From positions 1-51,456 of IMG/VR virus record IMGVR_UViG_3300024232_000003: a DNA stretch of 51,456 nucleotides, one strand, 5' to 3'. Shown here one piece after another: positions 15,348-31,497 of this stretch. A program made the translations under genes and the position numbers. The first letter of the stretch is position 1, and each line of letters begins with the position of its first letter. Below the pieces are notes generated by a model. That model saw only the letters and a program-made list of their open reading frames with translations, was not told the origin of the DNA and did no database searches. The stretch comes from a virus. Lineage: Duplodnaviria; Caudoviricetes.

Positions 15348-15359
15348 GGTCCTTCACTA

Positions 15360-15374
15360 TTCTGCGACGGTCTT
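15360..15374 (-). promoter_or_regulatory. Start-associated motif AAGACCGTCGCAGAA, copy 1
   Basis: Exact copies at 27339-27353 and 31483-31497; 12 nt upstream of GTG 15347. Confidence 0.85.
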
Positions 15375-15398
15375 TGCCTGCTGAACGGAACTCCTCAC

Positions 15399-15407
15399 AG
15401 TCTACCA
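15399..15407 (-). promoter_or_regulatory. Putative extended -10 promoter
   Basis: TGGTAGACT (TGnTAnnnT) directly after a terminator. Confidence 0.45.
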
Positions 15408-15413
15408 CTATTC

Positions 15414-15447
15414 AACGACAAAGCCCCGGAGGAACAACCTCCGGGGC
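15414..15447 (-). terminator. Rho-independent terminator after the lysis/accessory block
   Basis: 10-bp stem GCCCCGGAGG/CCTCCGGGGC followed by TTTGTCGTT on the minus strand. Confidence 0.75.
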
Positions 15448-15475
15448 CCCAGGAGTCTAACACGAACAGAGGAGA

Positions 15476-15757
15476 CTACTTCGCCTTGCCCTTGGCCTTG
15501 GCCAGTTGGGCCGGGGTCGGAGGAGGCGTCGGGGTATTGGCTGCCAAGGCTGCGGCCAGGGCGTCACTCTTCGCCTTCAAGGTCACGCCCAGGTCGGTGA
15601 CAGGCTGAAGCTCTGCGGCTGTGGCGCCGCCTTGGATAGCCGCGTCCACGGCCGTCTTGATGAGGCCCGGAACCGAGCCGATGAATACAGATGCGGCATC
15701 CATCACAGTGTCGGCTGCGGTCATTTCGTCGATAACGGGTTGCAGGTTTGCTGCCAT
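15476..15757 (-). CDS. Ala-rich helical hypothetical protein
   Basis: GGAGAG RBS; clean ORF. Confidence 0.75.
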   Translation of the reverse strand: MAANLQPVIDEMTAADTVMDAASVFIGSVPGLIKTAVDAAIQGGATAAELQPVTDLGVTLKAKSDALAAALAANTPTPPPTPAQLAKAKGKAK

Positions 15758-15789
15758 GAGAACTCTCCTTCATGAAGTGGTGAGACAGG

Positions 15790-15960
15790 CTATGTGCCTG
15801 TTGTTTTACTCGCGTCCAGGGCCGCTTGCAAGGCGTCGGATTTCTCCTTGAGCTTTGCAGCGGCTGCTTCGAGCTTGGCGGGGTCGTCTCGATGCATCAA
15901 CCAAAGAAGGATGAAATGCAACGTCTCCCGGTCCAAGCCGATCGTGATATTGAAGTGCAT
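15790..15960 (-). CDS. Small protein, 56 aa (not in ORF track)
   Basis: MHFNITIGLDRETLHFILLW...LKEKSDALQAALDA; AGGGGG RBS; similar to C-terminus of 15476..15757. Confidence 0.65.
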   Translation of the reverse strand: MHFNITIGLDRETLHFILLWLMHRDDPAKLEAAAAKLKEKSDALQAALDASKTTGT

Positions 15961-15970
15961 TGCAACCCCC

Positions 15971-16336
15971 TTACGTCTGGACTTCAGACAGCATGGCTGC
16001 CACGTCGGGCTCCGTAATGGTTTTGCCGACCTGAAGGAAGGCGTCCTCGATGGCGGCCTTGGGATCCTGGTCGGAGCATTGCTGGTCGATCACTTCCCGG
16101 AGCTGGGCCCTGTGGCCTCTTAGCTGTCGGTTGAACATACGGGTCACCCGCTGAGGCCGATTGGCCAGCGGCAGGCAGGTGAGCAGCATCGGCAACAGCG
16201 TCTTGAACAAAGACATGATCAAGTCGAGGAACGGGTGAGGGCTCGGGGCCGGCGGAGGAACCGGGTCGTCGCCCATCCCCGTGTCACCCCAAACGATGGC
16301 GGCGATCTTGGCGGACTGTTCTTCGATTGCGGACAT
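15971..16336 (-). CDS. Hypothetical protein
   Basis: GGGGA RBS; fills the operon. Confidence 0.7.
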   Translation of the reverse strand: MSAIEEQSAKIAAIVWGDTGMGDDPVPPPAPSPHPFLDLIMSLFKTLLPMLLTCLPLANRPQRVTRMFNRQLRGHRAQLREVIDQQCSDQDPKAAIEDAFLQVGKTITEPDVAAMLSEVQT

Positions 16337-16345
16337 GGTTTCCCC

Positions 16346-16567
16346 TTACCTGGTTAAAAACATCGCGAGTTCAAAAAGAGCCGAGCCCCAGAAGCACACG
16401 TTCGCGGTGATACATCGCTTCTTGGGGCCAGTGAAGCAGAAGGTTAATAGGGCTCCCTCGATCATATGGGAGAACGCCTCGAATGTTCCCGGCCAGCTCA
16501 GGCCGTGCCCTGGCACTGTGAAGCGGCCGACAATCATAAAGGCCGTTGCTGCCAGCATCCAAATCAT
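16346..16567 (-). CDS. Small multi-pass membrane protein
   Basis: Three hydrophobic segments in 73 aa; ATGA coupling. Confidence 0.6.
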   Translation of the reverse strand: MIWMLAATAFMIVGRFTVPGHGLSWPGTFEAFSHMIEGALLTFCFTGPKKRCITANVCFWGSALFELAMFLTR

Positions 16568-16755
16568 GATCTGCCCGCCAGCTGTTCTTCCCAGGTGTCA
16601 ATGATCTCTGGAGTAATGACAGTCCCAGCTTTGATTGTGTAGATCATGTGGCCGGCCAGATCTTCTACCTTGCGAAGGCGGGCGACTTCTCCCTCTATAC
16701 CCTTGAGCAGCAGCTTGAACTCAGGGCTGTCTTCGGGCTTGGTTTCAGGCGTCAT
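16564..16755 (-). CDS. Hypothetical protein
   Basis: ATGA overlap with upstream gene (start 16755). Confidence 0.6.
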   Translation of the reverse strand: MTPETKPEDSPEFKLLLKGIEGEVARLRKVEDLAGHMIYTIKAGTVITPEIIDTWEEQLAGRS

Positions 16756-17321
16756 TGGCCGCACCCGCCCTTTCCGCACCCGCCGCCTTTGTGTCCTCGG
16801 AAGATGCGGCCAAGCACTCTACGGATGGGGCCACTGCGAGCGACTGCACTCACGCTGGAGCCGTCGCCGACGTTGGAACCGTAAAGCGTCATGGGCGGAT
16901 CGGCACAGGCCACAGGCGGAGGAGCGTACTGCATTCTGGCCTTCATCGTGGCCACTTGCTCCGGAGTCATCTTCATCCCGCAACAGGGGCACACATCGCT
17001 CGATGAACTCGGCGGCAGGGTGGCCACAGGCTGCCACATCGCCTCCGGCACAAAACGAGTTCGAGTCACAAAACGAGTAGCCGGGACTACCGGGCAGACT
17101 CCGCCTGGGCAGTTGGATTGAACCCGGAGTTGAGGCAGGAAGTCGCTTTCCTCCGAGCCGCCCGAATGCTTGGGACAACCGAGGCAGGTGCAGTCGGCTC
17201 CGCACGTGCAAGGCTTGCCTTGGCTGCATCCGCAATCATCTTTCAGGGTCGATTGAGGCAGGGCCTCGGCATAAGCCGGGATGCTGATAACAAGGGCGGC
17301 GAGCAGGGCTAAATACTTCAT
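16752..17321 (-). CDS. Secreted Cys-rich protein with metallothionein-like N-terminal cluster
   Basis: Signal peptide MKYLALLAALVISIPAYA; CGCSQGKPCTCGADCTCLGC; CPGGVCP; start 17321 with GGAG RBS. Confidence 0.7.
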   Translation of the reverse strand: MKYLALLAALVISIPAYAEALPQSTLKDDCGCSQGKPCTCGADCTCLGCPKHSGGSEESDFLPQLRVQSNCPGGVCPVVPATRFVTRTRFVPEAMWQPVATLPPSSSSDVCPCCGMKMTPEQVATMKARMQYAPPPVACADPPMTLYGSNVGDGSSVSAVARSGPIRRVLGRIFRGHKGGGCGKGGCGQ

Positions 17322-17366
17322 GATCCACTCCTTTGTAGAGGCACACGGCCTCATTAACTAACGCGG

Positions 17367-17690
17367 TCAGGTTCCAGTAGGACAGTTGGGCACAGAGATC
17401 ATTGTACGCCGTGAGCCAGGTAGCTGAGTCCACCAGGGCCCCGCTCCACACTTCGGGCAGGTATGAGCCTGCCTGTTTCCGAAGCTGCTTTCTCCATGCG
17501 TCCACACGTATCCACAGGCACCGCAACGATGCGAATGCTGGGGCTCACGGGGCCGGCTGGGAACGAACTGGATGATGGGCTGAACGATTACCGGCTTGGG
17601 CTGAAGGGACGACAACGGTGGCAGGGTGCTCTGCGGGAGATCCGCATAGGCCACACCCGCCACCAACAAGAGGACAACTATTCGACACAT
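17367..17690 (-). CDS. Secreted protein with His/Cys zinc-ribbon motif
   Basis: Signal peptide ending AYA; HSHRCGACGYVWTH...AHTCPKCG. Confidence 0.7.
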   Translation of the reverse strand: MCRIVVLLLVAGVAYADLPQSTLPPLSSLQPKPVIVQPIIQFVPSRPREPQHSHRCGACGYVWTHGESSFGNRQAHTCPKCGAGPWWTQLPGSRRTMISVPNCPTGT

Positions 17691-17700
17691 GGGAGCCTCC

Positions 17701-18489
17701 TTAGGCTGCCGAGGGAGTAACGACTCTCGGAACTATCAGTCCGTCTGGAATAGCCTTATTGGCCACCAATAGGCCCGTGCCATTCTCGCTCCAAGAATCT
17801 CCCCAGGAGTTCCAGATCCTGATGGTGAACGGATTGAGTTTCACAAGGTCCATGGCGCAAACACTATGAGACCACCAGTTGTAATCGACAACGCAAGGGA
17901 TGTTCAGCAGAAGGCAGGTCGCGAGTTGGGCTTTGTTCCTGGGCTCGCCGTCCATCCATTCCGTGATCTTGTGCGTGGCTGCCTCCGCCCTCATGGCTGG
18001 AGTATCGTTGCTCCGCGACATGCTCTGCTGAGGCCACGTCTTGGAAGTCGGGCAGCCATTCGCGGCCTGCCATTCGACTCCTTCGGCTCCCCAACCACCC
18101 TCATCCCGATAGCCCTTGATGATGCAGGCTCCGGCATAGGCCGACAGATCAGCGTAGGGCTCATTGTTGACCGCACGGATGAGCAGATGGGCCGACACTC
18201 CCGAATGCTCCCAGCAGTAGCCCTTGCCGTTCTGGTCTCGGCTCGGGATCGGAGCTCCGTTGTTGCCCTTGTTGCGGATATCGGAGAGTTGCATCTTGGA
18301 AGCGATTTGAGCGGCCAGCCGATCAGGCCACTCCGACTCGGGGATCAAGGGCAGGTCGAACGGCTTGGCACACATCAGGTAGCCAATCGGGTATTGAGCA
18401 TAGTCACGCGGGATCAACCCTTTGGCGTGACCCCAGGGCGAGGTCATATGCTCGTGAGCGTTGCCGTCGTGAATAACGATCTCGGCCAT
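17701..18489 (-). CDS. Papain-like (C1 family) cysteine peptidase
   Basis: DQNGKGYCW (oxyanion Gln, catalytic Cys); WWSHSV (His); IWNSWG..W..NG (Asn); start at MAEIV 18489. Confidence 0.85.
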   Translation of the reverse strand: MAEIVIHDGNAHEHMTSPWGHAKGLIPRDYAQYPIGYLMCAKPFDLPLIPESEWPDRLAAQIASKMQLSDIRNKGNNGAPIPSRDQNGKGYCWEHSGVSAHLLIRAVNNEPYADLSAYAGACIIKGYRDEGGWGAEGVEWQAANGCPTSKTWPQQSMSRSNDTPAMRAEAATHKITEWMDGEPRNKAQLATCLLLNIPCVVDYNWWSHSVCAMDLVKLNPFTIRIWNSWGDSWSENGTGLLVANKAIPDGLIVPRVVTPSAA

Positions 18490-18491
18490 GA

Positions 18492-19334
18492 TTAGCCTCC
18501 GAATTTCTTGAGAAGAGTGAGCATGTCGGCCTCGTTCGCCGGCAGGGGCCCCTCGAAGCCCGTCTTGCCGTTGGAGATTATCACCCACGGAACCGCTGTC
18601 CGTGGCCTCGCCATAGCGTCCTGCCAGAGCTTCGACTCATTGGCCGTCGTCACGTCCTTGTCCCAGATCCGCCATTCCTTGGTTTTGCCGTCTGCGCCCA
18701 CAGCGGCCTTGCTGGTCATGTAGTCACGCACCGCAGGGCCGTAGAGGATCGGAAGCTGCTCTTTGGGAAGCTTCGACAGCTCGGCCGTCTCGTACACGAT
18801 CAGCACCCGGAAGCCGTCTACCGGAATCGGAGGCAACGGACCGGGTGGAGGAGGCGGGGGCGGCTTGGGGCCCGGCGGGTCGGGCGGAGGAGGTGGCGGA
18901 GGCGGCTCGCCCGTCGTGATGGCCTGGCGAATGAGCGTGGCCACGTCTGTCGACCGAAAGATCAGCAATTCGCACGAGCCGGGATTGGCCGCCGTGACGA
19001 TGTAGACGTTGGGCTGCTTGTAATTCCTCAGTTCCGGCTTGCCGTCCTTCGAGTCGCTGAAGACTCCCCACATCGTTATGGGGCCTGGCGCCGCAACGAC
19101 GTTCACGAAGCCCAGAGGTGACGAGGTGACGCCCACGGGGCCGGTTGAAGGAATGACGTAGAGAACGCCAGGCTTGAGAAGGAACGCTGTGCCTGGTGTT
19201 GGTACAGGAACGGGCGGGGCAGGAGGATTGGGCAGAGTGACGACGGGAAGCTTGGGAGGAGGTGGAACAACCGTTTGTCCCCAAGCCGAGCCGACTAAGG
19301 CGCTGGCTAGGAACAATGAAAATAGATACCTCAT
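18492..19334 (-). CDS. Secreted Pro-rich protein with C-terminal globular (thioredoxin-like?) domain
   Basis: Signal peptide; poly-Pro linker; RVLIVYE...VPWVIISNG...GPLP domain. Confidence 0.7.
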   Translation of the reverse strand: MRYLFSLFLASALVGSAWGQTVVPPPPKLPVVTLPNPPAPPVPVPTPGTAFLLKPGVLYVIPSTGPVGVTSSPLGFVNVVAAPGPITMWGVFSDSKDGKPELRNYKQPNVYIVTAANPGSCELLIFRSTDVATLIRQAITTGEPPPPPPPPDPPGPKPPPPPPPGPLPPIPVDGFRVLIVYETAELSKLPKEQLPILYGPAVRDYMTSKAAVGADGKTKEWRIWDKDVTTANESKLWQDAMARPRTAVPWVIISNGKTGFEGPLPANEADMLTLLKKFGG

Positions 19335-19335
19335 T

Positions 19336-19405
19336 TCGACCTTTCAGTTAGAGATCCGGGCGAGCCAGCCGGGAAAGGTCGAGTAAACCAACCGACCCGC
19401 CCGGA
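19336..19405 (-). promoter_or_regulatory. Putative RBS-sequestering RNA pseudoknot/switch
   Basis: Crossing stems 19336-45/19373-82 and 19355-62/19398-405. Confidence 0.55.
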
Positions 19406-19411
19406 CCAGGT

Positions 19412-19804
19412 TTAACTTGCCTTCCCTGAATCGACGACGGCTTGCTTTACTTCGTGCTCGTGGAAAAGCCGTTCCGCCAGATCCGCCGCCTTGACGTCTT
19501 CTTGATCTTTGCTGATCACTGCTATTCGGCGCAAGGCTACGGCGCTGATTTTGAGCTGGGCCGACATGCTGGAGTTGACCAGAGTATGCACGGCCTTCCC
19601 CGTGTTGGAAATCTCCTTGAGCTGCTTGTTGGTGGCGTCAGTGTTATCGGCCAAGGTGTCCTTGACTTCGTTGACGTGCTCGGCGGCCTCCTTTCCCACC
19701 TTGACGATGGCGTTCCTGTTTTGACGCTGCATGTAGCCAAGCCCGAGAGCCACGGCCCCAGCTATCAGAGCCTGCCACACTACGTCTGAGATTGCAAAGA
19801 TCAT
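19412..19804 (-). CDS. Membrane-anchored coiled-coil protein (lysis-associated?)
   Basis: N-terminal TM (VVWQALIAGAVALGLGY) then helical domain. Confidence 0.65.
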   Translation of the reverse strand: MIFAISDVVWQALIAGAVALGLGYMQRQNRNAIVKVGKEAAEHVNEVKDTLADNTDATNKQLKEISNTGKAVHTLVNSSMSAQLKISAVALRRIAVISKDQEDVKAADLAERLFHEHEVKQAVVDSGKAS

Positions 19805-20235
19805 TGAGGCTCCTTGCCGTCAGTCTCCCGATCTGTCTTAATCAACTTTTGCAAGGAAGCAATGTCTTGCTTTACGGATTTAAAGGGGTGACGTGCTATG
19901 GCTGAAATGAGGGCCGCACGAACCGTTTCGATGTTTCCGTTCTTGAGAATGAACTCGTCGGCACCGAGCCGCATTGCCTCCGAGGCTTCGCCGGCCCCGC
20001 TCCACACGACTATAGGAACGTCAGGGAACTGCTTGACTAGGGCCTCCAATGTGCTCATTCCTTTGGAGTCGGGCAGGTTTAGATCGAGAAGGATCACGTC
20101 GGGGATAATGGCTTGCATCATGCCCAGGGCGTCTTGAAGTGTGGCGGCGTGCGTGAATTCAAAGGAGCCTGACAAGATCGAGTCGGCCATCTTAAAATCG
20201 TTTGGGTTATCCTCAATCATTAGCACCGTGGCCAT
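19801..20235 (-). CDS. Single-domain response regulator (CheY-like receiver)
   Basis: VLMIEDN; DVILLDLNLPDSKG (phospho-Asp); PIVVWSG; GADEFILK. Confidence 0.9.
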   Translation of the reverse strand: MATVLMIEDNPNDFKMADSILSGSFEFTHAATLQDALGMMQAIIPDVILLDLNLPDSKGMSTLEALVKQFPDVPIVVWSGAGEASEAMRLGADEFILKNGNIETVRAALISAIARHPFKSVKQDIASLQKLIKTDRETDGKEPQ

Positions 20236-20236
20236 G

Positions 20237-20677
20237 TCACACCCCGCCGACCTGCGATTCTAACTCCTGCACTCTAGAACGGAGTTGGTCGACTTCATCC
20301 GTCAACTCAGTCATTCTTTTTTGCTGCTCGGCGTTGATCTTGAGCAGTTCGTTGATTCTGGTCAGTTGGTTTTCGCACCGCTCTTTGAGGGTCGCATTGT
20401 CGGATAAATAGGCCACGCGATCCTTCTCGAAGCTGTCGACCCTGGCCTGCAAGCCTTCAAGGGCTTCCTTGTACCACCCGAAGCGATGATCATAGATGGC
20501 CTGTTCGAGCGACTCATCCTTGGCCCTTACTCTTTGCTTCTTGGCGGCGATCTGCGGGGCTTCCGATCTCCACTTCCGAGCAAAGAGTAAGACTGCCGGC
20601 ACTAAGCCAATGAGGGCTCCGATTGAATACTTGAGAAGGCTGGGCCACGAAACGAAATCCTCTTCTCCGAACAACAT
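20237..20677 (-). CDS. TM plus long coiled-coil protein (holin/spanin-like)
   Basis: TM SIGALIGLVPAVLLFA then heptad-rich tail; probable start 20677. Confidence 0.6.
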   Translation of the reverse strand: MLFGEEDFVSWPSLLKYSIGALIGLVPAVLLFARKWRSEAPQIAAKKQRVRAKDESLEQAIYDHRFGWYKEALEGLQARVDSFEKDRVAYLSDNATLKERCENQLTRINELLKINAEQQKRMTELTDEVDQLRSRVQELESQVGGV

Positions 20678-20702
20678 CACGGGTTCCTCAGTGTTCGGGT
20701 CT

Positions 20703-20882
20703 CTATCGAAGCGGCGAAACTCCTCCAAAGACCACCCAGCCAAGTATGGCCACACAAAGCCAGGGAATCAGCGTGCTGGTCCCGAACACGACAGGGTTGG
20801 CATTTGGCTGGTTGTAGACGTAGTAGCCGCCTCCAAACAGCCAGAACATCATGAGCACGACGAATATGACGCAGAGAATCAC
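20703..20882 (-). CDS. Two-TM small membrane protein, holin candidate (59 aa, not in ORF track)
   Basis: MILCVIFVVLMMFWLFGGG...LIPWLCVAILGWVVFGG; GTGA overlap with upstream stop. Confidence 0.6.
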   Translation of the reverse strand: MILCVIFVVLMMFWLFGGGYYVYNQPNANPVVFGTSTLIPWLCVAILGWVVFGGVSPLR

Positions 20883-21127
20883 CTTGGTAGCCTCCCGTTT
20901 AGTTGGCGGGCCATCGCATTGGCCTGCTGCTGCTGGGCCTCCATCGCCTGGACCATCGCCATGTTCCGCTGGAACGTGAGGTTAACCTTGGCCATTTCCA
21001 GCATGGCCAGCGCGAAGTCCAGGTTGGCCACGTTCTTCACGCCAACCTGGATGCTTTGCGAGCCTGCGTCGAAGGCCAGTCTCACTTCTGGGCAGCCCGC
21101 TACTTCGATCTGTTGTTCTTCCGACAT
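20879..21127 (-). CDS. Hypothetical protein
   Basis: AGGAGG RBS. Confidence 0.7.
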   Translation of the reverse strand: MSEEQQIEVAGCPEVRLAFDAGSQSIQVGVKNVANLDFALAMLEMAKVNLTFQRNMAMVQAMEAQQQQANAMARQLNGRLPR

Positions 21128-21175
21128 TCTGGCCTCCTTTTGAATGAACTGAAACGGGGGTTTCAGTTGAGCGGA

Positions 21176-21826
21176 TCACGCCATGAGCCAGGTGTTTCCA
21201 GCGCCTGACAAACACACCGCCCAGACGCCTTTGCCTGAGACGCTACTGAAGGCCGCATCGGCCGCTGCTCCGTTAATGACCGCTCCCGTAGGCCCATAGA
21301 CCTTCAGTATCTGGTTGCTCACTCCGTTGCCGATGAAGATCCTTCGACCTGTCACTTTGTCAGCAGCGTTGATAATCACGCCCACCGTGCCGTCCGCTGC
21401 TGTGGTTGGGTAGACCGAAGCCGTTCCAGCAGGCAGAGCCGCCGCAGTCGCAGAGTTCGTCCCCAACGCTATCGTGTTGGCTCCTACCGCAACCGTCTCT
21501 GTGCCGGTGTTCGTGTAGGCAGGAGTCGTCAAGGCCGTTGCGGTAAGCGCCGTTACGGTCAAAGAAGCGATCGTGGAGCCCGAAGTCGGCAGTTGCGTCC
21601 ACGTCGAAAGAAGGTACGTACCTGTGTTGACGTAGAGCGTGCCAGGGTTGGATTTGAAGTTGTAGAACAACGCCCCAGGAGCCCAACCAACGATGCTGTT
21701 GACCGGGACGCCTGTAGTGAGGTTTGAACTCGCTGCCTGGGTAGGCAGGCCAAGTAAATGACCTCGCCCATCTACGTACATGAGCCTGTCTACTGCTGCA
21801 TCAATGTCAAAACGAGAAATTGCCAC
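21176..21826 (-). CDS. Putative virion decoration/fibre protein
   Basis: Thr/Ala-rich; PGALF...LYVNTGT..STW motif; AGGAG RBS. Confidence 0.6.
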   Translation of the reverse strand: MAISRFDIDAAVDRLMYVDGRGHLLGLPTQAASSNLTTGVPVNSIVGWAPGALFYNFKSNPGTLYVNTGTYLLSTWTQLPTSGSTIASLTVTALTATALTTPAYTNTGTETVAVGANTIALGTNSATAAALPAGTASVYPTTAADGTVGVIINAADKVTGRRIFIGNGVSNQILKVYGPTGAVINGAAADAAFSSVSGKGVWAVCLSGAGNTWLMA

Positions 21827-21875
21827 TTTGAACTCCTTTGGCCGCGGGCGCGCCCTTGGCCGTTAACGATGCACG

Positions 21876-22406
21876 CTAAATCGTACAAACCAAAGCGTTG
21901 ACGCTTGTCGAGGAACTGTTGAGGCCGGTCACGATCGAAAACAGTGAAGCGCCGTCCAGATTCTGCCAGAAGCTGGCGACCGAGTTTCCCGTAGGACTGT
22001 GGATTCCATAGTCGAGGCCGACCGTGCCGCCCTTGATGATCACAATGGTTCCCGCGAACCTCTGAGTGGATCCCACGTCTGCATTGTCGAGGCCTGGCAC
22101 CGTGCAAAGCGTCACAGTGTACGACGACAGAAAGTACGGGATCCAGATAGGCACGTGAGGAGCGGTGAGGGCAGGAAGGATTCTCCAGCCATAGACGTTC
22201 ATGATAAGCGTAGTGGCCGATCCCACCCCAAAAGGCAACACCAACATCCTCTTGGGAGCTATGCCGCCAAACTCCGAGTTGAAGTCGATAACCCCGTCAC
22301 CCGAAGGGCGGCTATAGGTCGGCACTGGCTCGACGATAGAGGCCGCGGTCGAGTTCGCTGTAGGGAAGGCGACCTTGAAAGGGCCTGTGCGTTCGTCAAT
22401 CTGCAT
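21876..22406 (-). CDS. Putative virion structural protein
   Basis: Beta-rich 176 aa in late operon; GAGG RBS. Confidence 0.55.
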   Translation of the reverse strand: MQIDERTGPFKVAFPTANSTAASIVEPVPTYSRPSGDGVIDFNSEFGGIAPKRMLVLPFGVGSATTLIMNVYGWRILPALTAPHVPIWIPYFLSSYTVTLCTVPGLDNADVGSTQRFAGTIVIIKGGTVGLDYGIHSPTGNSVASFWQNLDGASLFSIVTGLNSSSTSVNALVCTI

Positions 22407-22425
22407 CGCCTAACCTCTTATAAGA

Positions 22426-22484
22426 CACCCTCCCGTACTCGCTTCTGCGAAGACCGTCGCATAGAACACGAAGCCGGGAGGGTG
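22426..22484 (-). ncRNA. Structured intergenic RNA carrying the antisense copy of the start-associated motif
   Basis: 10-bp closing stem CACCCTCCCG/CGGGAGGGTG; inner GCTTC/GAAGC and TGCGA/TCGCA stems; contains GTGTTCT-A-TGCGACGGTCTT. Confidence 0.6.
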
Positions 22485-22495
22485 ATTCCGTTGTT

Positions 22496-23290
22496 TCACT
22501 CGAATGGCTGGCCGTTGTAGGTCAACTGGCCACGATTCCAGTAGCCGTGACGGTTCCAGCGGCCCCCTCGCTGGGCATTGCCGTTGTAACCGAGTTTCTG
22601 GGGCCGGTTCTTGTTGTCGGCACTCACAGCGCCCAGGAGCATCATCTGGAATTTCATGGTGTGCGGCCCGTCCATCGTGTCGTCGAATCGCTGCTCCGCG
22701 ATCGACAGGCAGCTTTCGATATACAACTCGCGGTACTGGGGGCCACCGTAACAGTAAGGGGTAGCACCCGTGATTCGATCCGGATTGATCGAGTAGACGC
22801 AGCGGATGTCATAGGCCGCGTCTGACGTCGGGAAGATCACCAGGCTCTTGCGCTGGCCCACGGGGGCGTTGATGTCTCGGAGCGGGGCCTCGCAGGCGTA
22901 CAAGGGTGGCCCGGTTCGGCTTGGTTCGAGCTGCTGCATCTGCTGGATCTTGCCGAGGTTGATCCACTCGATCAGCCACGGGGCCGAGACGCTCGTGCTC
23001 GATACGACCGTTAGCGGGCCGACGAAACTACCGAAATCATCCGGCAAGCGAATCGAACTGGCCCCTGAGTCGAGGTGAATCGTCGACTGTGGCTTGAGGA
23101 AGGTCCAGTCGGGAGCGATCTTCTCGCCGTTTACTGGGGGCGGGAAATAAACTTGCGCGATGCCCGAAGTGGTCACGTCGTTTATGACATACAACTGGTT
23201 GTCATTCCATCCAGCAGGGTCGCGCCCGTAACCCTGCTGGACGGCAATGATGGAACGAAGCTCGTCAAAAGTCACTGCAAAGGAGGACAT
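22496..23290 (-). CDS. Head-tail adaptor / tail tubular protein A-like
   Basis: W.FL...LPDDF...GPP..Y...IFPTSDAAY pattern typical of podoviral adaptors. Confidence 0.7.
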   Translation of the reverse strand: MSSFAVTFDELRSIIAVQQGYGRDPAGWNDNQLYVINDVTTSGIAQVYFPPPVNGEKIAPDWTFLKPQSTIHLDSGASSIRLPDDFGSFVGPLTVVSSTSVSAPWLIEWINLGKIQQMQQLEPSRTGPPLYACEAPLRDINAPVGQRKSLVIFPTSDAAYDIRCVYSINPDRITGATPYCYGGPQYRELYIESCLSIAEQRFDDTMDGPHTMKFQMMLLGAVSADNKNRPQKLGYNGNAQRGGRWNRHGYWNRGQLTYNGQPFE

Positions 23291-23348
23291 TAGGCTGCTT
23301 TCTTACAGGTGCATTTGGTCTTGCCGCACTTCGGACACTTCTTGGCTT

Positions 23349-23480
23349 TCATTTCTTGCCTTTCTTCTGTTTGACTCGGGCGGGGAGCTTACCCTTGTTG
23401 TTGAAGTGGTGAGCCTCCGCGAACTTCTTGCCCTTGGTCGCGTAGATAAACGCGCGCTGGGCCTGACTCTTGGTCGGCAT
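23349..23480 (-). CDS. Small basic protein (MPxKSxAQ family)
   Basis: MPTKSQAQRAF...KGKLPARVK; AGGAG RBS. Confidence 0.65.
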   Translation of the reverse strand: MPTKSQAQRAFIYATKGKKFAEAHHFNNKGKLPARVKQKKGKK

Positions 23481-23482
23481 GG

Positions 23483-23794
23483 CTACTCCTTGTGATGGCT
23501 CCTCTTCTTCTTTTCCGGTGGAGCATCGGGGCAGATGCACGGATCTTCCCCGCACACTTCACACTTCTCCGTTGGAGGCGGAGCATCCTCATAGTGGGCC
23601 GGGCAGCACTCATCGGCCTGCTTGAGGACGGCGTGTTCGTGGAAGGTTTGCGTTCCGTCTGGCTCGAAGGCCACCAGGTTGACAATGCCGTCGCCAAACG
23701 ATTTGACGACGATGCATGGTTGACTCTCCGGGTAAGGAACTTCGTCCGAGCCCGGAGGAGTATAAGTCGAGAGGCCGAGGTGAGTCTTCTGCAT
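23483..23794 (-). CDS. Hypothetical protein
   Basis: PCIVVK..VNLVAF motif; C-terminal CEVC..CIC; AAGGA RBS. Confidence 0.65.
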   Translation of the reverse strand: MQKTHLGLSTYTPPGSDEVPYPESQPCIVVKSFGDGIVNLVAFEPDGTQTFHEHAVLKQADECCPAHYEDAPPPTEKCEVCGEDPCICPDAPPEKKKRSHHKE

Positions 23795-23854
23795 GATTGA
23801 TTCCTTGAATCGATAAGGCAGGTGATACCCCGGTATCACCTGGAATTGTGTGGC

Positions 23855-24844
23855 TTACGAGTTTCCAAGCTGGGCGATGCGAATCCAATCCGCAGCCAGG
23901 TAATCGCTCGACTGCGAGGCCATGTTCATGACCGAGAGGACCGGGGACATGAAGGCGGTCGGGAATGCCTGGGTGGCCGTGGCATTCACCACGTCGTCCG
24001 TGCTCAGCCAGGTGCTCATTACCTCGACGCTATTGACGAAGAACCGGATGATCTTGCGACGAGTGTTGCCCGTTGTCTGCCGAGCGGTCGGGGCCGAGCC
24101 GATCAGAGTAGGCAACCCCTGGGGGTCGAAGATCCATCCCAGCTTCACGTAAGCATCGGCCGCCAACACCGTCTGGCCGGCCGCTGCCATCAGGGTCGTG
24201 AGGTTGGTTGGGTAATTGATCGTACCCGAGGCCAGGCAGAACGAGACGCCGACTTCCGTGGGGCCGCCGCGCGTGGAAGTCGTGCCGGCCAGGTTGAAGC
24301 CAAAGGTGTCTCCGGCGGTCATGAGCGTGTCGTCGGTCGTCGTCCAGGGCTGGGCCGCCGCGGGGAGACCGGAGGCCAGGGTCGGAGCCATCAGGCCCAC
24401 GAAGACCGAGGTGTGGGCCGTGGCGATGCTGCTCTTGGCGATGCGGGCCTCGAACCACATCTTCTGGTTCAGGGCCAGAGTGGAGGTCGTGAGGAAGCGA
24501 AAGCCGGCCGCGGACGAAAGCAGCGTGAGGCCTTCGTTGTCGCCGTCAGCAGACATCTTGATGACGCCGCCTTCTTTCTGGCCGTCGTTGATCTGGGTGC
24601 CTGCGTACCCATATGTCGACCACTGCCCGATCGAGCCCGCATAAGCGGAACTCATCGTGGCGTTGCCGATCATGTTGAAGTCGTCGAAGAACCAGGCCCC
24701 GTCTACCGAGCCTTCCTGCATGGCCTCCCAGGGGCAATCGCCCCAGATGGAGTACGACGGGAGCCGGTAATTCCCCAGCGCTACCCCGCCCGAGAAGGCC
24801 GAGGCGGGGTTGTTGGCCAGGTACTGTGGATGTTTTGCTGCCAT
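23855..24844 (-). CDS. Putative capsid-associated (decoration/minor head) protein
   Basis: FFDDF...WFEARI...YVKLGW..D...FFVN...DWIRIAQ beta-sandwich; downstream of MCP; high GC3. Confidence 0.6.
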   Translation of the reverse strand: MAAKHPQYLANNPASAFSGGVALGNYRLPSYSIWGDCPWEAMQEGSVDGAWFFDDFNMIGNATMSSAYAGSIGQWSTYGYAGTQINDGQKEGGVIKMSADGDNEGLTLLSSAAGFRFLTTSTLALNQKMWFEARIAKSSIATAHTSVFVGLMAPTLASGLPAAAQPWTTTDDTLMTAGDTFGFNLAGTTSTRGGPTEVGVSFCLASGTINYPTNLTTLMAAAGQTVLAADAYVKLGWIFDPQGLPTLIGSAPTARQTTGNTRRKIIRFFVNSVEVMSTWLSTDDVVNATATQAFPTAFMSPVLSVMNMASQSSDYLAADWIRIAQLGNS

Positions 24845-24907
24845 TTGCTTTCCTTCCGCCTCGGCGGGTTAGGGGTTGAACTCTTGGCCTTTAGGCCACG
24901 TTTTTGT

Positions 24908-25363
24908 TCAGGACGCCTCTACTTCTTCTTGCTTCCGCTTGGGCCGGGCCTTGATGGGCTTCACTGGGGCCGGAACTAACTCAGGGACTCGCTTGCTGGG
25001 ATTCTTGTTGTAGACCCGCCACGAGAACCACTTCCAGTGATCGTGGGTCTGGCCGCTCTGGTAATCCTTCTGAGGAGTCAATGGATTCACCAGCTTGTCG
25101 CCCTTGTCTTCCTGCACGTACTCCCGCAACTTTCCGTTTACGCGCAGGAAGCCGGTCTCGACTTCTTCGATCTCCCCGGTGTCGGGGTTTTTGCGACGAC
25201 GGGTGGCCGCTTCGATCGGCTCCAACACCTTGCGTTCATTCGGCCTCAAGGGGTCCACCGTGCAGAACCCCACCATATGAACGCACATCCCCAGCTCGTC
25301 CAGCTCATCGTCGGAGCAGCCGAAGGGGCAGAAGTTTTCTACTTCCTCTTTTACGTCAGGCAC
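24908..25363 (-). CDS. Hypothetical protein
   Basis: AGGAG RBS; CPFGC...CVH. Confidence 0.7.
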   Translation of the reverse strand: MPDVKEEVENFCPFGCSDDELDELGMCVHMVGFCTVDPLRPNERKVLEPIEAATRRRKNPDTGEIEEVETGFLRVNGKLREYVQEDKGDKLVNPLTPQKDYQSGQTHDHWKWFSWRVYNKNPSKRVPELVPAPVKPIKARPKRKQEEVEAS

Positions 25364-25374
25364 GGTCTAACTCC

Positions 25375-25611
25375 TTAGCTTGCCAATTTGACAGGGATAT
25401 CCAGGTACTCCCCGATGATGGTCGCAATGCTGTTCGCGTCGGCCTTGTACGATTCAGACGAAAGAATCTTCTGCGCCCATCCATAGTCGGCCACGACTGA
25501 GAACAGTCTCGTTTTGCTTTCAGGCTCGGCTGTGTCGTGGACCATCAGAGCCTTCGGCAAGGAGTCGTTCAAAACGAAATGAGAAAACGTCTTCGTATGC
25601 GTACAAGTCAT
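25375..25611 (-). CDS. Hypothetical protein
   Basis: AGGAG RBS. Confidence 0.6.
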   Translation of the reverse strand: MTCTHTKTFSHFVLNDSLPKALMVHDTAEPESKTRLFSVVADYGWAQKILSSESYKADANSIATIIGEYLDIPVKLAS

Positions 25612-25621
25612 GTCGGACTCC

Positions 25622-25696
25622 TACAATGAAACGAGCACGCGGCGGCTGTTACCCGCCCGTGCCCCGGCACTACTCAGATTGGAGACAAAGCAGTGC
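25622..25696 (+). promoter_or_regulatory. Endonuclease leader element, divergent copy
   Basis: TACAATGA; hairpin 25635-25662; second stem GCACT/AGTGC enclosing GGAG and covering the GTG start. Confidence 0.55.
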
Positions 25697-26280
25697 AACA
25701 CAATTCTACTGATCTTTTCGGCAACCTTCCTTTGCAACAGTGCATGTTGTGCAAAGAGCGCAAACCAATCGACGACTACCCGATGGGCAAAGTCCGTCGC
25801 GTTCGCAACTGCTCGGCCTGCCGATCCAGAACAGAAAAGGCCTGCACGAAATGCAAACGAGTGCAGCCTATGGAAGATTTTCCCTGGAACACTCCAGCCA
25901 AAAATAATCCGTGCTATCCAAAGAAGTATCGAGGATCCCATTGCAACACTTGTGGTGCAGAACACACTAGGGCGTGGGGCCTGAGGGTTGGCAAGGCCCG
26001 CGTCAGACAAATGAACAGGCAAAAGCTCTATGGGATTACCTTGGATCAATACCGGGAAATGGAGTTGGCTCAGGACGGTCGGTGCCTGATCTGCGGAACC
26101 AACGAATTCCCTATCGACAAGCGAAGCAAAATACCGAGACAGCTTGAGGTCGATCACTGCCACAAGACTGGCAAGATTCGCGGACTGCTTTGCCATCGTT
26201 GCAACAATGGCCTTGGCTGTTTCAGTGATGACCCCAAACTCCTTCAAGCTGCAATCTCCTATCTACGTAAGTCGTTGTAA
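25693..26280 (+). CDS. Endonuclease VII-family homing endonuclease (antisense insertion)
   Basis: YGITLDQY..QDGRCLICG...LEVDHCHKTGKIRGLLCHRCNNGLG; N-terminal CxxC repeats. Confidence 0.9.
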   Translation: MQHNSTDLFGNLPLQQCMLCKERKPIDDYPMGKVRRVRNCSACRSRTEKACTKCKRVQPMEDFPWNTPAKNNPCYPKKYRGSHCNTCGAEHTRAWGLRVGKARVRQMNRQKLYGITLDQYREMELAQDGRCLICGTNEFPIDKRSKIPRQLEVDHCHKTGKIRGLLCHRCNNGLGCFSDDPKLLQAAISYLRKSL

Positions 26281-27327
26281 TCAGCTGGGATAGGTCGTCC
26301 CGTTCGATGCGCAAAAGTGTGGACGCCTATTTCGGGTATAAGGGGTCCACATGCAGTCCGTAAACCCTAGCGAAACATTGTGACTGCTTGGCGAGTAAGG
26401 AATGATCGTCTCGCGCATCCACTCTCCGCGGGCGATGGCAATCCAGAACCATCCGAGGTCGAGGCCGTAGAAAGGATTCGTGGTGTCGGCATCGAGGAAT
26501 GGCACGTACTTGACGCCGATCCCGCGAAACATAGGGTCGCCGCCATCCATGCTGGCGACGTCACGACCAAGATTGTCATTCTGCGACTCCATGCTTTCTT
26601 GCAGGGCCTGCCGCACTGCGTAGTTGGAGTAGTAGCGTGGCTTATACCCGTTGTTCGGGCTCGGGATGCCCTTGACCTGGGGCTTGAAATTGCACTTCTC
26701 TGCGGCCTCGCGGATCTGACGGATGAAATCATCGCGTGAAATCGCTGTGTAAGGCGCACACCAGTTCTGCCACCTGGGGTAGGTCGTCGAGCTGATGTTC
26801 GCAATGGCCGTGTAGCCAGTGAGCATGCCCGAGGTGAAGCCCTTGGTGGCGCCCTTGGTGACCCAGTAGGGCAGGCCGAAGGGAACCTTGAGGTCGGTGG
26901 CCGAGGGCGGCATCCAGAAGTTGCGCTCAAAGAGGTTCGCCAGGCTGATCTGCGCCATGATGCGCTGCTGCTTGACGAAATCGACGATGAGGGCCGGTTC
27001 TCGATTCATCGACACGAGTTGATGAATGAGCATCCAGCTCGTTTGCGTGTTGCGGAAGTTGATGCGGCCCTGGATCATGCCGTCCGTTTCGGTCACGTTG
27101 TCCGGCTCGGCCAGGCCCACGTTGCGCGCGGCCGTGCTCTGGTTGACCAGGGCGTTGAACTGCATGCCCACGCCGGAGCCGATCGTCACCCGATCTTCCA
27201 CCAGAAGCTCATCCATGACGACGAGCTGCTGGAGGTCGCTCGAAATGTCGGTCCAGTCCGGCTTGCCGAGGTCGTAGAGTGTGTCCGCTACGAAGTCGGC
27301 CACATTTTCCATCTGGATTACAGGCAC
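26281..27327 (-). CDS. Major capsid protein
   Basis: 348 aa after scaffold; strong GC3 bias; HK97-fold-like pattern (PFGLPYW, WQNW, FRGIGVKYVP). Confidence 0.75.
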   Translation of the reverse strand: MPVIQMENVADFVADTLYDLGKPDWTDISSDLQQLVVMDELLVEDRVTIGSGVGMQFNALVNQSTAARNVGLAEPDNVTETDGMIQGRINFRNTQTSWMLIHQLVSMNREPALIVDFVKQQRIMAQISLANLFERNFWMPPSATDLKVPFGLPYWVTKGATKGFTSGMLTGYTAIANISSTTYPRWQNWCAPYTAISRDDFIRQIREAAEKCNFKPQVKGIPSPNNGYKPRYYSNYAVRQALQESMESQNDNLGRDVASMDGGDPMFRGIGVKYVPFLDADTTNPFYGLDLGWFWIAIARGEWMRETIIPYSPSSHNVSLGFTDCMWTPYTRNRRPHFCASNGTTYPS

Positions 27328-27338
27328 TTCAAAACGCT

Positions 27339-27353
27339 TTCTGCGACGGTCTT
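27339..27353 (-). promoter_or_regulatory. Start-associated motif AAGACCGTCGCAGAA, copy 2
   Basis: 11 nt upstream of MCP GTG; no clear Shine-Dalgarno in between. Confidence 0.85.
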
Positions 27354-28317
27354 AGGATCGTTTGAAAGTATTACGCAGGTCTTGATCTTCTTTGGCCGTG
27401 GACGGGTTGACTGCCACGCCGTTCTCGCGAGCCCGGCGTTCAGCGTTCTTGATGGCGCGCTCGCGACCGAAGGGCTCCTGGTCGCTCTCGCGTTGCGTTG
27501 GGACCGCGGTTCCGCCGGCTTCCCACTCTTCGCGGGTGTAGCGGCCACGGCGTTGCGGACGTTCTACTGAAACGGGGGTTTCAGTTGACTTCTTCTCGAT
27601 CTTGAAAAGCTCGTCGGCCTTAGCCTTGAGCTTCGAGAGAAGTTGTTTTCCGGAGGTCACGCGGGCGTCGAGGCCGGTCTCCTGAAGCACCACCATGCGC
27701 CTGCGGAAGGTGGCCGGGTCGGAGGCCTTGAGGTCGTCGCCGGATCCGGCACCGAAGTAAGCCGCGTACTCCGGCCCCAGAGCCTCAAAGGCGTCGTCGA
27801 TCATCGACTTGGCCTGAGCGATGGAGCGTTCCTGATCGCGCGCTTTGGTTTGGGCCAACTCTTCACGGAGTTCCTTGAGGGCCTTGGCGTTCTCGGCGTC
27901 ACGAGTCTTGAGCTTGTTGAAGGCCCCGACGATCTTCTCGTCGTACTCTTCCGGCTTGAGGCCGAGATCGAGTTCCGGCTCGGGTTCAGGGGCCTTGGCT
28001 GGTGTCTGGGTGGACTGGAGGCGTTCACGCCACTCGTTGTCGCGGCGTTGGGCCTGCGTGAGGGCGATTCCGAGCGAGTCTGTCGTCATCTTGGCGCAGT
28101 CGGCCTCGGTGAAGCCGTAGTTCCTGGCCATTTCGAGGAGATAAGAAGGGTGAGCCGGCGGAGTGGATGAGTTCTTCGCCGGCTCGGGGGGTGTGACTTC
28201 CTTGAAAGTGCCGTCAGGATTGCGTTCCCGGGGCCTGGGAATGCCGTCCGGCTGGGACATATCGAGGTCGGTGTTGCCCAAATTCCTATTGGGAACTTCC
28301 GGTGTAGGCTCTGCCAA
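27352..28317 (-). CDS. Capsid scaffolding protein
   Basis: Acidic/coiled-coil; RERNPDGTF motif; between portal and MCP. Confidence 0.7.
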   Translation of the reverse strand: MAEPTPEVPNRNLGNTDLDMSQPDGIPRPRERNPDGTFKEVTPPEPAKNSSTPPAHPSYLLEMARNYGFTEADCAKMTTDSLGIALTQAQRRDNEWRERLQSTQTPAKAPEPEPELDLGLKPEEYDEKIVGAFNKLKTRDAENAKALKELREELAQTKARDQERSIAQAKSMIDDAFEALGPEYAAYFGAGSGDDLKASDPATFRRRMVVLQETGLDARVTSGKQLLSKLKAKADELFKIEKKSTETPVSVERPQRRGRYTREEWEAGGTAVPTQRESDQEPFGRERAIKNAERRARENGVAVNPSTAKEDQDLRNTFKRS

Positions 28318-28361
28318 TGCACATCACGTCTTCCCGCGTGGTCTTCGCTGAAGTGATGTTA

Positions 28362-28390
28362 AGCTTACGTCGATATGGAGATAGTGTCAA
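28362..28390 (-). promoter_or_regulatory. sigma70-like promoter for scaffold/capsid genes
   Basis: TTGACA (28390-28385), 17-nt spacer, TAAGCT (28367-28362). Confidence 0.65.
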
Positions 28391-28410
28391 AGAATCAACG
28401 ATTTGGGGCC

Positions 28411-28477
28411 AACTGCTACCCCGGTAGCAGTTCAACTGCGTACCGGTACGCAGTTCGACTGGACAGGGTGTCCAGTC
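28411..28477. repeat. Three tandem RACTG...CAGTY palindromes
   Basis: 28411-28432, 28434-28455 and 28457-28477, each separated by a single C. Confidence 0.85.
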
Positions 28478-28479
28478 CG

Positions 28480-28863
28480 TCAGATTCGAGGCCGTTTCTT
28501 GGGCGGTTCGGGCGGCAAAGCAGCCCCTCTTCCGCTCCAATTCTCGTCTCGATTCACGTATCCAGTGGCCTGGCAATATTGCCTCTGATGCTCCCGGCTC
28601 TTCCAGATGATTGAGCCGTCTGGAGCGAAGTCGGTCGGCACTCCGATGGCTGTGGCCGCAGCGCGAGCCTCTTCGACCTGGCTTGGGTGGACTCCGAGCG
28701 AGTCGGCTGCGTAGGGATAACTCGAAGCCTTGGCTCCCATTGGAGGCCCGGAGCCGGCCACGGGCAGAGGATGGCGTTCCCGGTAGGTGACCTCGTCTAC
28801 TTCGAGGTTGTCTAGGAAGTAGTGAGCCTCTTTGCCAAGCTCGATTCGGTCAGGCGTCTTCAC
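28480..28863 (-). CDS. Hypothetical protein between portal and scaffold
   Basis: LGVHPSQV...GVPTDF..DG; GTGA coupling. Confidence 0.7.
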   Translation of the reverse strand: MKTPDRIELGKEAHYFLDNLEVDEVTYRERHPLPVAGSGPPMGAKASSYPYAADSLGVHPSQVEEARAAATAIGVPTDFAPDGSIIWKSREHQRQYCQATGYVNRDENWSGRGAALPPEPPKKRPRI

Positions 28864-29117
28864 GTCGCGTCTCCGTATGCCTCGGCAATCTTATTCTTCA
28901 CCAGCTTATCGAACGCCTCGCCTTCGAGCCGCCTGATGTCTGACAGTTCCACTGGGAACTGGATGGCCAGGCCCCTCGCTATGATGCAGACGAGGGCCGG
29001 GCCTCGGCTCAAGTGTTGCATCGTCACGTTCACGGAATCAACGTCTCCGACGACGCGCTCCAGGCATTCGGCCAGTTTCTTCTCGCAGCCTGAACTACTG
29101 CCGGTTGTGACTTTCAT
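28860..29117 (-). CDS. Hypothetical protein
   Basis: AGGAGG RBS. Confidence 0.65.
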   Translation of the reverse strand: MKVTTGSSSGCEKKLAECLERVVGDVDSVNVTMQHLSRGPALVCIIARGLAIQFPVELSDIRRLEGEAFDKLVKNKIAEAYGDAT

Positions 29118-29130
29118 TGTGTCCTCCTTC

Positions 29131-29210
29131 TACAATGACGAAAGGCCGGCGTGTTGAAGCACGGCGGCCTCTCTCAACACAACCCGCTTTCTGAGGAGCG
29201 AGTCATGCCT
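29131..29210 (+). promoter_or_regulatory. Endonuclease leader element, copy 2
   Basis: TACAATGA; hairpin 29143-29170; 15-nt and 16-nt blocks identical to 12144-12158 and 12162-12177. Confidence 0.75.
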
Positions 29211-29669
29211 AGAACTTATGTTACTCACGGCCAATGCGTTGGTGGAGCCTCTCGCGAATACAAGTCTTGGTACAGCATGATCCAACGCTGCACCAATCCC
29301 AAGAATCGTTCGTATCCAGACTACGGAGCCAGAGGGATTACGGTCTGTTTTGAATGGAGAAAGTTTGAGGCGTTCTTTGCCGACATGGGCAAAAAGCCGT
29401 CTCTGCTGCACAGCCTTGATCGCAAAGACAACAGCAAGGGCTACTGCAAAGAGAATTGCCGCTGGGCCACAAAGACTGTGCAAAACAGGAACGCCAGAAG
29501 GAATCGACTTCTGACGTTCAGGGGAACAACGATGTGCGTCTCGGCTTGGGAAGAACACCTTGGCTTTACTCCCGAAACCATTCGCCAGAGGCTTGACAAG
29601 TGCCACTGGTCGATTGAAAAGGCATTGACCGCTCCGCAGAGGAATCTCACATCCGTCGTACAGCGTTAG
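29205..29669 (+). CDS. HNH-type homing endonuclease (antisense insertion)
   Basis: YKSWYSMIQRCTNP..YPDYGARGITVC..W..F..F..DMG...SLDRKDNSKGY.KENCRWAT..QNRN; start at 29205 from RBS. Confidence 0.88.
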   Translation: MPRTYVTHGQCVGGASREYKSWYSMIQRCTNPKNRSYPDYGARGITVCFEWRKFEAFFADMGKKPSLLHSLDRKDNSKGYCKENCRWATKTVQNRNARRNRLLTFRGTTMCVSAWEEHLGFTPETIRQRLDKCHWSIEKALTAPQRNLTSVVQR

Positions 29670-31470: not shown

Positions 31471-31482
31471 GGTGCCTTAGTG

Positions 31483-31497
31483 TTCTGCGACGGTCTT
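31483..31497 (-). promoter_or_regulatory. Start-associated motif AAGACCGTCGCAGAA, copy 3
   Basis: 12 nt upstream of portal ATG; overlaps the TerL stop. Confidence 0.85.

Follow-up and report, generated by a model that had tools for sequence, protein, structure and literature searches.

A conserved hairpin between late genes of an uncultured soil phage carries the complement of a leader element of the portal, capsid and a third late gene: a candidate anti-leader RNA

Why does a hairpin in the late messenger RNA (mRNA) of a phage hold at its tip the exact complement of an element that stands before three other late genes? The question is raised by an uncultured soil phage (Duplodnaviria; Caudoviricetes) represented by IMG/VR virus record IMGVR_UViG_3300024232_000003, a complete record of 51,456 bases with a 126-base terminal repeat, which was analysed over its whole length and is called the window here. 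The hairpin lies on the minus strand at 22426-22484 and occupies most of the 89-nt gap between an adaptor-like gene and the next late gene, open reading frame (ORF) 21876-22406. The element stands in the leaders of the portal gene, the major capsid gene and ORF 14976-15347, and the hairpin and these targets are transcribed from the same strand. We propose, tentatively, that the hairpin acts as an anti-leader antisense RNA on all three. An earlier, sequence-only reading of the locus had suggested a loop-seeded antisense design. Complementarity beyond chance, a free loop seed and targets near the ribosome-binding site (RBS) were borne out, whereas the bulge that it also relied on proved not to be exposed.

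The minus-strand sequence that the sequence-only reading gave for the hairpin matches the window exactly, and the perfect 10-bp closing stem described there is present (CACCCUCCCG/CGGGAGGGUG). The 59-nt RNA folds as a single hairpin of 23 bp with a minimum free energy of -33.2 kcal/mol (z = -5.42), and none of 200 dinucleotide shuffles folded as well (shuffle mean -18.4). Above the GC-rich lower stem, a bulge of 2 nt on the 5' side precedes the 5-bp mid stem, and a single-nt bulge separates this from the 4-bp upper stem (UUCU/AGAA); past a further bulge, AU, the inner stem of 4 bp (GCGA/UCGC) closes the 6-nt loop CGGUCU. As had been claimed, this loop is the complement of AGACCG in the leader motif, and it is fully open, with an unpaired probability of 1.0. 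The fold drawn earlier (GCUUC/GAAGC with an 8-nt bulge) came out at -29.1 kcal/mol, 4.1 worse than the minimum. GUGUUCU, which that fold placed in the bulge, is indeed complementary to AGAACAC but pairs with GCGAG and AGAA; its bases, G18 excepted, have unpaired probabilities of 0.0-0.6 in the ensemble. On the opposite side of the upper part, the strand UCGCAGAA is a sense copy of half the motif, and the hairpin therefore holds in cis the duplex that is possible with a target. Since this strand is the same in the target, the target can replace it base for base. Rfam gave no match at gathering score in the whole window, and around the hairpin (22350-22550) only three noise matches (E 0.27-7.6), c4 not among them.

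The motif itself, AAGACCGTCGCA, is the genome's only 12-mer with four copies, three of them in minus-strand leaders and one inverted at the tip of the hairpin. This fourth copy lies on the plus strand (22450-22461), and the late RNA therefore carries its complement, UGCGACGGUCUU, at that place. Six of the 12-18 complementary bases are in the loop and the remainder in stems. On the portal leader the complementarity extends to GUGUUC, which lies beyond a UA bulge in the hairpin. The sequence-only reading had counted 18 bp there with one bulged A; the 18 bp stand (12 + 6), but they are interrupted by the two bases of the UA bulge, so that the portal copy spans 17 nt vs 19 nt in the hairpin. The pattern AGACCG-N(0-8)-AGAACAC has two matches in the window, on the plus strand at 22451-22469 and on the minus strand at 31480-31496, against a chance expectation of 0.01. 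A blastn alignment of the hairpin locus with the portal leader covered 24 nt (E 0.005-0.009 in the 51-kb window).

Could an ordinary GC-rich hairpin resemble the motif by chance? Scans by energy alone are permissive: shuffled 12-mers average -19.5 kcal/mol against the minus strand, with a best of -22.0, and, if large loops are permitted, certain coding windows match the leaders with a better score than the hairpin gap does. Long-window duplex-energy scans were dominated by such large-loop artefacts and were set aside. The exact match is far harder to obtain. From 4^-12, an exact 12-mer reverse complement of the predefined triple repeat is expected about 1e-5 times in the 89-nt gap and <1e-3 times in the late non-coding sequence as a whole. 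Among shuffled 12-mers the third-best site in no case attained the observed -21.7 kcal/mol (0/25), and none of 100 shuffles gave two matches to the spaced pattern above. Coincidence is scarcely credible, and explanations other than those weighed below have, with chance included, a slight probability taken together.

Where the sequence-only reading had described one good and one degenerate copy of the motif, the latter at the scaffold gene, there are three exact sense copies. The 14-mer AGACCGTCGCAGAA occurs exactly three times in the window, always on the minus strand (Table 1). With up to 3 mismatches there are 7 matches, including the 3 exact ones, and 5.95 loose matches are expected by chance; the hairpin copy is the only other structured match among the 7. 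Copies 1 and 2, before the portal and capsid genes, are identical across 17 nt, and two of the three start codons that follow the element are GTG. The complement is thus placed beside the RBS: it is exact over 12 nt on all three leaders and ends 10-12 nt before the starts. The capsid gene has no recognisable Shine-Dalgarno sequence (SD), the 17-nt element being the sole conserved feature in its 24-nt leader; ordinary SDs precede the capsid genes of relatives. An Atlas-linked record begins the capsid protein at Met6, a start that places the element 26 nt upstream. We favour the GTG start because of the capsid N-termini of three relatives, which have 10-18 residues before a conserved D-L/F-V, one of them starting MP- like the GTG form. 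A scan of IMG/VR for AAGACCGTCGCAGAA found 84 loci on 84 contigs, one each, which is chance level, and no relative with repeated copies.

Some smaller observations concern the same leaders. One contig of soil run X5 (depth 3.4) lacks a base at 31479, right after the portal copy, so that its element-to-ATG spacing is 11 instead of 12 nt. A canonical-looking terminator hairpin (~15423-15456; a GC stem, then the T-run TTTGTCGTT) lies ~50 nt upstream of copy 3. Within ORF 21176-21826, an inverted match of 28 nt at 21421-21447 has 86% identity, with 2 gaps and E 0.017, to the leader of ORF 14976-15347; it falls mostly on the flank upstream of the element and is probably due to chance.

Three invariant copies directly upstream of late genes, in a phage with head genes of the SU10/phiEco32 type, could also be a signal at the level of DNA. 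The 14-mer might be a single-element late promoter like those of phiEco32, read by a phage-modified RNA polymerase, or an operator bound by a DNA-binding protein of the phage. The hairpin copy would then be a fourth site in opposite orientation, and a double-stranded site is the same in either orientation. As described in PMC8948821, phiEco32-like middle and late promoters consist of one conserved element, tAATGTAtA, and transcripts start 6-8 bp past it; sigmas of the phiEco32 type are very divergent (15% identity, 7-11 vs phiEco32). The phage studied here shares with these a short invariant element repeated, in three exact copies, before late genes. A restart would be plausible at copy 3, which comes after a terminator-like hairpin with a T-run, and around the hairpin site TTCTGCGA...TCGCA(TA)GAA forms a palindrome like that of an operator.

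Other features of the element fit a DNA-level site poorly. No phage sigma gene was detected in the window, Pfam showing no sigma or RNA polymerase domain in 81 ORFs (20 + 33 + 28), a search that a divergent one could escape, and nothing is conserved among the three copies upstream of the element. Unlike a phiEco32-like promoter, the element ends just 11-12 nt before the start codons, and one copy is inverted in an RNA hairpin. A start 6-8 bp downstream would leave leaders of 3-6 nt before the two GTG codons and would lose the SD-like AAGG/GAAGG; from what is established for leaderless mRNAs, such short leaders are unfavourable for translation. The 2-nt insertion in the hairpin copy would upset a site of fixed length, while similarity to the flanks of the portal copy and placement in a loop are unneeded for a protein site. 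A reverse promoter at the hairpin would yield RNA antisense to the adaptor gene, and there is no plus-strand ORF with coding-type GC content at third codon positions (GC3) downstream. A plus-strand transcript or small ORF arising from the inverted copy was dropped as a candidate on the same ground. Overall, we regard a DNA-level site as unlikely.

The hairpin is conserved as a structure among the closer relatives. The adaptor protein has 26 homologs besides itself in a large protein collection, and the comparison of DNA covers a few of them. In two metagenome contigs, L012 and L013, a hairpin follows right after the adaptor stop codon. The L012 adaptor is 55% identical to that of the window and the L013 adaptor 53% identical to L012 (in-frame part). 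After the hairpin both contigs have a pyrimidine-rich stretch, an SD and a homolog of ORF 21876-22406. In the window, L012 and L013 the hairpin is built alike. A GC-rich lower stem of 10-11 bp leads to a 5' bulge of 2 nt, a middle stem of 3-5 bp and a bulge of 1 nt; above these come an upper stem of 4-5 bp, whose 5' strand is pyrimidine and whose 3' strand is purine, and 11-18 nt of apical sequence, which in the window is 16 nt (inner stem plus 6-nt loop). The relatives' hairpins have z of -4.35 and -4.21. In the lower stem, 7 of 10 pairs have both bases replaced when the window is set against either relative, and all still pair. In each of the three hairpins, folding of the late-mRNA strand is favoured by 2.5-4 kcal/mol over that of its complement. 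Structural conservation, which the sequence-only reading had named as a check, was thus found in both close relatives (2/2) with compensatory stem changes, and the pattern points to selection on the hairpin as a structure. UUCUAU, which includes the 'inserted' AU, also occurs in L013 at the same structural position, a hint that the feature is old and not a recent insertion.

Further searches added no relatives of this kind. Neither blastn nor tblastn against GenBank phages found any, nor did scans of genome contigs, and IMG/VR gave no match to the adaptor or portal as single query. An adaptor profile found 10 IMG/VR loci, all at <=39% identity and without the gap. Scans of IMG/VR with the stem patterns of L012/L013 and of the window returned 1 and 2 loci, namely a coding region (L112) and the contigs L113 and L114; the latter two were rejected as relatives because they showed no protein similarity to 28 late proteins encoded in the window. 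With the window hairpin as its single sequence, a covariance model placed L012 at E 0.065, with L013 not among the 20 matches listed, and was therefore too weak to use. The MAFFT alignments of the three gaps were not structure-aware, and contig L011 is cut at this region.

A purely cis-acting hairpin would fit much of this. At the boundary of head and tail genes it would serve as a weak attenuator, as a barrier to 3' decay or as a processing site of the RNase III type, and its complementarity would have no role in trans. The complementarity would then derive from an inverted copy of the TerL-portal spacer, or from palindromic duplication around the quasi-palindrome GACCGTC. The hairpin sits between cistrons and is highly stable, with an irregular stem of about two turns whose 23 bp are broken by three small internal loops or bulges, as in sites of the RNase III type. 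Its architecture is kept in the relatives and the sequence of its tip is not significantly so, and its upper stem consists of the motif's 3' half in palindromic form. Strong hairpins, of equal or greater strength, also lie in at least four other gaps of the late operon (28412-28481, 19352-19421, 15387-15456 and 12112-12181), so that merely having a hairpin does not set this gap apart in the genome. The order of sequence blocks speaks for copying. On the plus strand the hairpin locus has AAGACAC, 21 nt, AAGACCGTCGCA, TA, GAACAC and GAAGCC, and the TerL-portal spacer has AAGACAC, T, AAGACCGTCGCA, GAACAC and TAAGGC. The further co-linear blocks that the two have in common (AAGACAC and AAG-C) are flanks absent from the other two leaders, as copying predicts, and to judge by its letters the plus strand of the locus appears to be an interrupted copy of the whole spacer.

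A neutral relic is, however, unlikely to retain 12/12 + 6/6 identity within an old hairpin of conserved architecture; UUCUAU in L013 hints at that age, and the complement falls exactly on the loop. As in an intrinsic terminator, a GC-rich stem-loop is present, with its 10-bp closing stem and -33.2 kcal/mol, but the tail after the stem, UCUUAUAA, has no U-run (>=5 T in 8), and a terminator scan of 15000-34500 listed no minus-strand site at this hairpin. A plain intrinsic terminator was rejected on these two grounds, and of the two relatives L012 alone shows a fair U-run. Everything seen would agree with a decay barrier or a site of the RNase III type. We judge it somewhat unlikely that the hairpin acts in cis alone.

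How might the hairpin act on the leaders? Within the polycistronic late mRNA, read from the minus strand, it would form a conserved stem-loop after the adaptor gene and before the late gene that follows, and its GC-rich lower stem would serve as a stable end or processing barrier for the head-gene message. The free loop CGGUCU would seed pairing with AGACCG of the 15-nt element, 11-12 nt upstream of the three start codons. Next, UCGCAGAA of the target would take the place of its identical counterpart in the upper stem of the hairpin, and the resulting duplex would have 12 bp on each of the three leaders, or 18 bp on that of the portal gene. Beside the RBS this duplex would lower translation or make a double-stranded RNase site, after the distal operon has been transcribed. 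The duplex with portal mRNA would span -27 to -10, abutting the SD-like AAGG, a position relative to the start codon at which pairing would interfere with ribosome binding. We infer that the RNA accumulates, that it pairs in the cell and that its effect runs in this direction. More speculatively, with the loop as a toehold for strand displacement by UCGCAGAA, one downstream element may co-ordinate translation or RNase III processing of the portal, the capsid and a third late gene, all with the invariant 15-nt tag, and may represent a wider, undescribed class of phage anti-leader hairpins.

The energetics are in part favourable. RNAcofold cannot place an intermolecular helix within a closed loop, and for that reason RNAup-style sums (duplex energy plus the opening cost of both partners) were used. 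The loop by itself had a net pairing energy of -4.8 to -6.7 kcal/mol, and the 12-mer one of -7.3 to -10.2 kcal/mol. For a stretch of 19-20 nt the values were -13.4 to -14.0 kcal/mol on the portal leader and -5.4 to -6.0 kcal/mol on the leaders of the capsid gene and ORF 14976-15347. These sums leave out the steric cost of more than one helical turn in a loop closed by a 10-bp stem.

Several results weigh against an action on the leaders. Since GUGUUCU is mostly paired in the ensemble, the loop is the sole truly exposed part of the complement. RNAcofold, within the limit just given, found a net gain of 0.0 kcal/mol between the closed 59-nt hairpin and the portal or capsid leader. The extended pairing must melt the upper stem within the closed loop, and more than about one helical turn inside a loop shut by a 10-bp stem is sterically awkward. 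Beyond the 12-mer, additional pairs with the capsid and ORF 14976-15347 leaders amount to 4/6 positions (G-U counted), which is within chance (binomial ~0.15). The tip is less well conserved than the stem. Ungapped, L012 has TGCGA[C/A]GGTC in common with the window, a similarity reached by 286/5000 shuffles, and the L013 score was reached by 4432/5000; gapped scores were reached in 300/3000 and 599/3000. On its 5-kb contig the L012 tip has no significant partner (6/60 shuffles were as good), and the comparison with L012 and L013 covers the hairpin region only, their contigs ending before the portal, capsid or ORF 14976-15347 leaders. More distant types (L002, L003, L004-006, L007-009 and L010; adaptor identity <=39%) have no gap at this place. 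No leader 12-mer is repeated in four genomes at a greater distance (G001-G004), and in G001 and G002 nothing like the leader element precedes the portal gene. The stretch is present in five soil-metagenome sequencing runs, none of them an RNA run. The regulatory logic is also not obvious, since the hairpin and its targets are made 1:3 from the same operon. A by-product of copying, or a DNA-level site, accounts for the inverted copy nearly as well.

The nearest described mechanism, by analogy, would be the c4 antisense RNA of phages P1 and P7. Its complementarity is reportedly borne in loops and the RNA processed by RNase P, points attributed to Citron and Schuster in 1990. As with c4, a phage RNA from the target's own operon has a short complementarity by the target's RBS region. 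Unlike c4, which lies upstream of its target in an immunity circuit, the hairpin is in a structural operon, where two of its targets lie 5-9 kb upstream of it and the other 7 kb downstream, and it has three targets with one invariant element. It also lacks sequence or Rfam similarity to c4 and any recognisable processing signal, and is not a member of the c4 family. In P1/P7, according to PMC8198154, c4, icd and ant1/2 form one operon and full ant repression requires the C4 antisense RNA.

Two bacterial and phage hairpin types bear comparison as well. RNAs of the CpxQ, SroC and DapZ type, from 3' untranslated or intergenic regions, usually have their seed in a single-stranded 5' part, a U-tailed terminator and a dependence on Hfq or ProQ. 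The phage hairpin resembles them in that a stable hairpin at a cistron end could outlast mRNA decay and act in trans through a short RBS seed, and differs in having its seed in the apical loop and no U-tail. At intercistronic RNase III sites of the T7 type, the 3' hairpin left after cutting stabilises the upstream message, and these sites are not known to have complementarity to leaders of other genes. Here too there is an irregular stem of ~20 bp or more with internal loops between cistrons; this hairpin, by contrast, is complementary to the leaders of other genes.

In tailed phages the ratios of portal, scaffold, capsid and tail proteins are usually credited to promoters, terminators, RBS strength and translational coupling. 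If the proposal is true, an RNA from the distal late operon that pairs with a tag common to head genes would add a post-transcriptional layer of feedback. Among the papers listed by a full-text literature search, none describes a hairpin antisense to portal or capsid leaders for structural operons of double-stranded DNA phages. If the antisense interpretation fails, an invariant 15-nt element at a fixed distance from three starts (two GTG, one without SD) still needs explaining, and so does the conserved two-tier hairpin.

Table 1. Positions of the hairpin parts, leader copies, neighbouring late genes and a second repeated word in the window
Feature	Position	Strand	Remark
Lower stem, 10 bp, GC-rich	22475-22484 / 22426-22435	-	from the fold
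Apical loop CGGUCU	22451-22456	-	fully unpaired
UCGCAGAA	22443-22450	-	3' strand of inner and upper stems; sense copy of the motif's 3' half
UGCGACGGUCUU	22450-22461	-	exact reverse complement of AAGACCGTCGCA; inner-stem 5' arm, whole loop and one base
UA bulge	22462-22463	-	separates GUGUUC from the 12-mer complement
GUGUUC	22464-22469	-	complement of GAACAC, which follows the motif in the portal leader only
GUGUCUU	22422-22428	-	stem end and 3' flank; complement of AAGACAC, 1 nt upstream of the motif in the portal leader; co-linear block
Leader copy 1	31483-31496	-	from TerL stop codon; ends 12 nt before portal ATG (31470)
Leader copy 2	27339-27352	-	from stop codon of scaffold-like gene; ends 11 nt before capsid GTG (27327)
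Leader copy 3	15360-15373	-	ends 12 nt before GTG of ORF 14976-15347
TerL	31496-33436	-	phrog_2, E 2.7e-8
Portal, SU10/P22 type	29647-31470	-	Atlas features and model; ATG start at 31470
Scaffold-like protein, charged	27352-28317	-	
Major capsid protein	26281-27327	-	Atlas clusters with that name, TM 0.91-0.93
Adaptor-like gene, upstream of hairpin	22496-23290	-	PF24175 SU10_adaptor
Late gene downstream of hairpin, 176 aa	21876-22406	-	homolog in L012: 32% identity, E 1e-15
Third gene with leader element, 123 aa	14976-15347	-	no family match
AGGATCGGGAAG(A), copies	1914-1926; 34949-34960; 36752-36763; 37655-37667	-; -; -; +	

The genes around the hairpin are those of a late structural block. 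In this genome, whose GC content is 59%, the minus strand carries nearly every long ORF of gene-like GC3. The adaptor protein scored 22.7 bits against PF24175, under the cut-off of 27, and 13 of 22 aligned homologs matched the family at E <= 0.001. The SD of ORF 21876-22406, AAGAGG, is located 12 nt past the hairpin stem. PDB sequence searches with the portal, the capsid protein and the adaptor profile gave no match. Beyond TerL, PHROGs returned just a few families of unknown function and weak matches for one early ORF. A contig from soil run X4 is identical to the window over 22243-22571, hairpin included; the contigs assembled from the soil runs are short and of low depth.

A number of minor features were seen elsewhere in the window. 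The gap between ORF 28480-28863 and the scaffold-like gene (28411-28478, minus strand) holds three tandem near-perfect palindromes of ~22 nt each, two of which have the arms AACTGC...GCAGTT in common; these could form a triple hairpin or a repeated operator before the scaffold gene. A stand-alone gene for a CheY-like receiver domain (PF00072, E 6.9e-16) lies within the late structural block at 19801-20235 (minus strand), and a 1864-aa ORF without Pfam or PHROG match stands at the end of the block (2287-7881, minus strand). There are three HNH_3 endonuclease genes, at 12172-12687 (plus), 47090-47902 (minus) and 50042-50638 (minus), two of which have in common a 62-nt stretch of 82% identity in inverted orientation (12194-12255 / 47546-47607). 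A second repeated word, AGGATCGGGAAG(A), occurs in 3-4 copies, in both orientations, around the region of early/late divergence.

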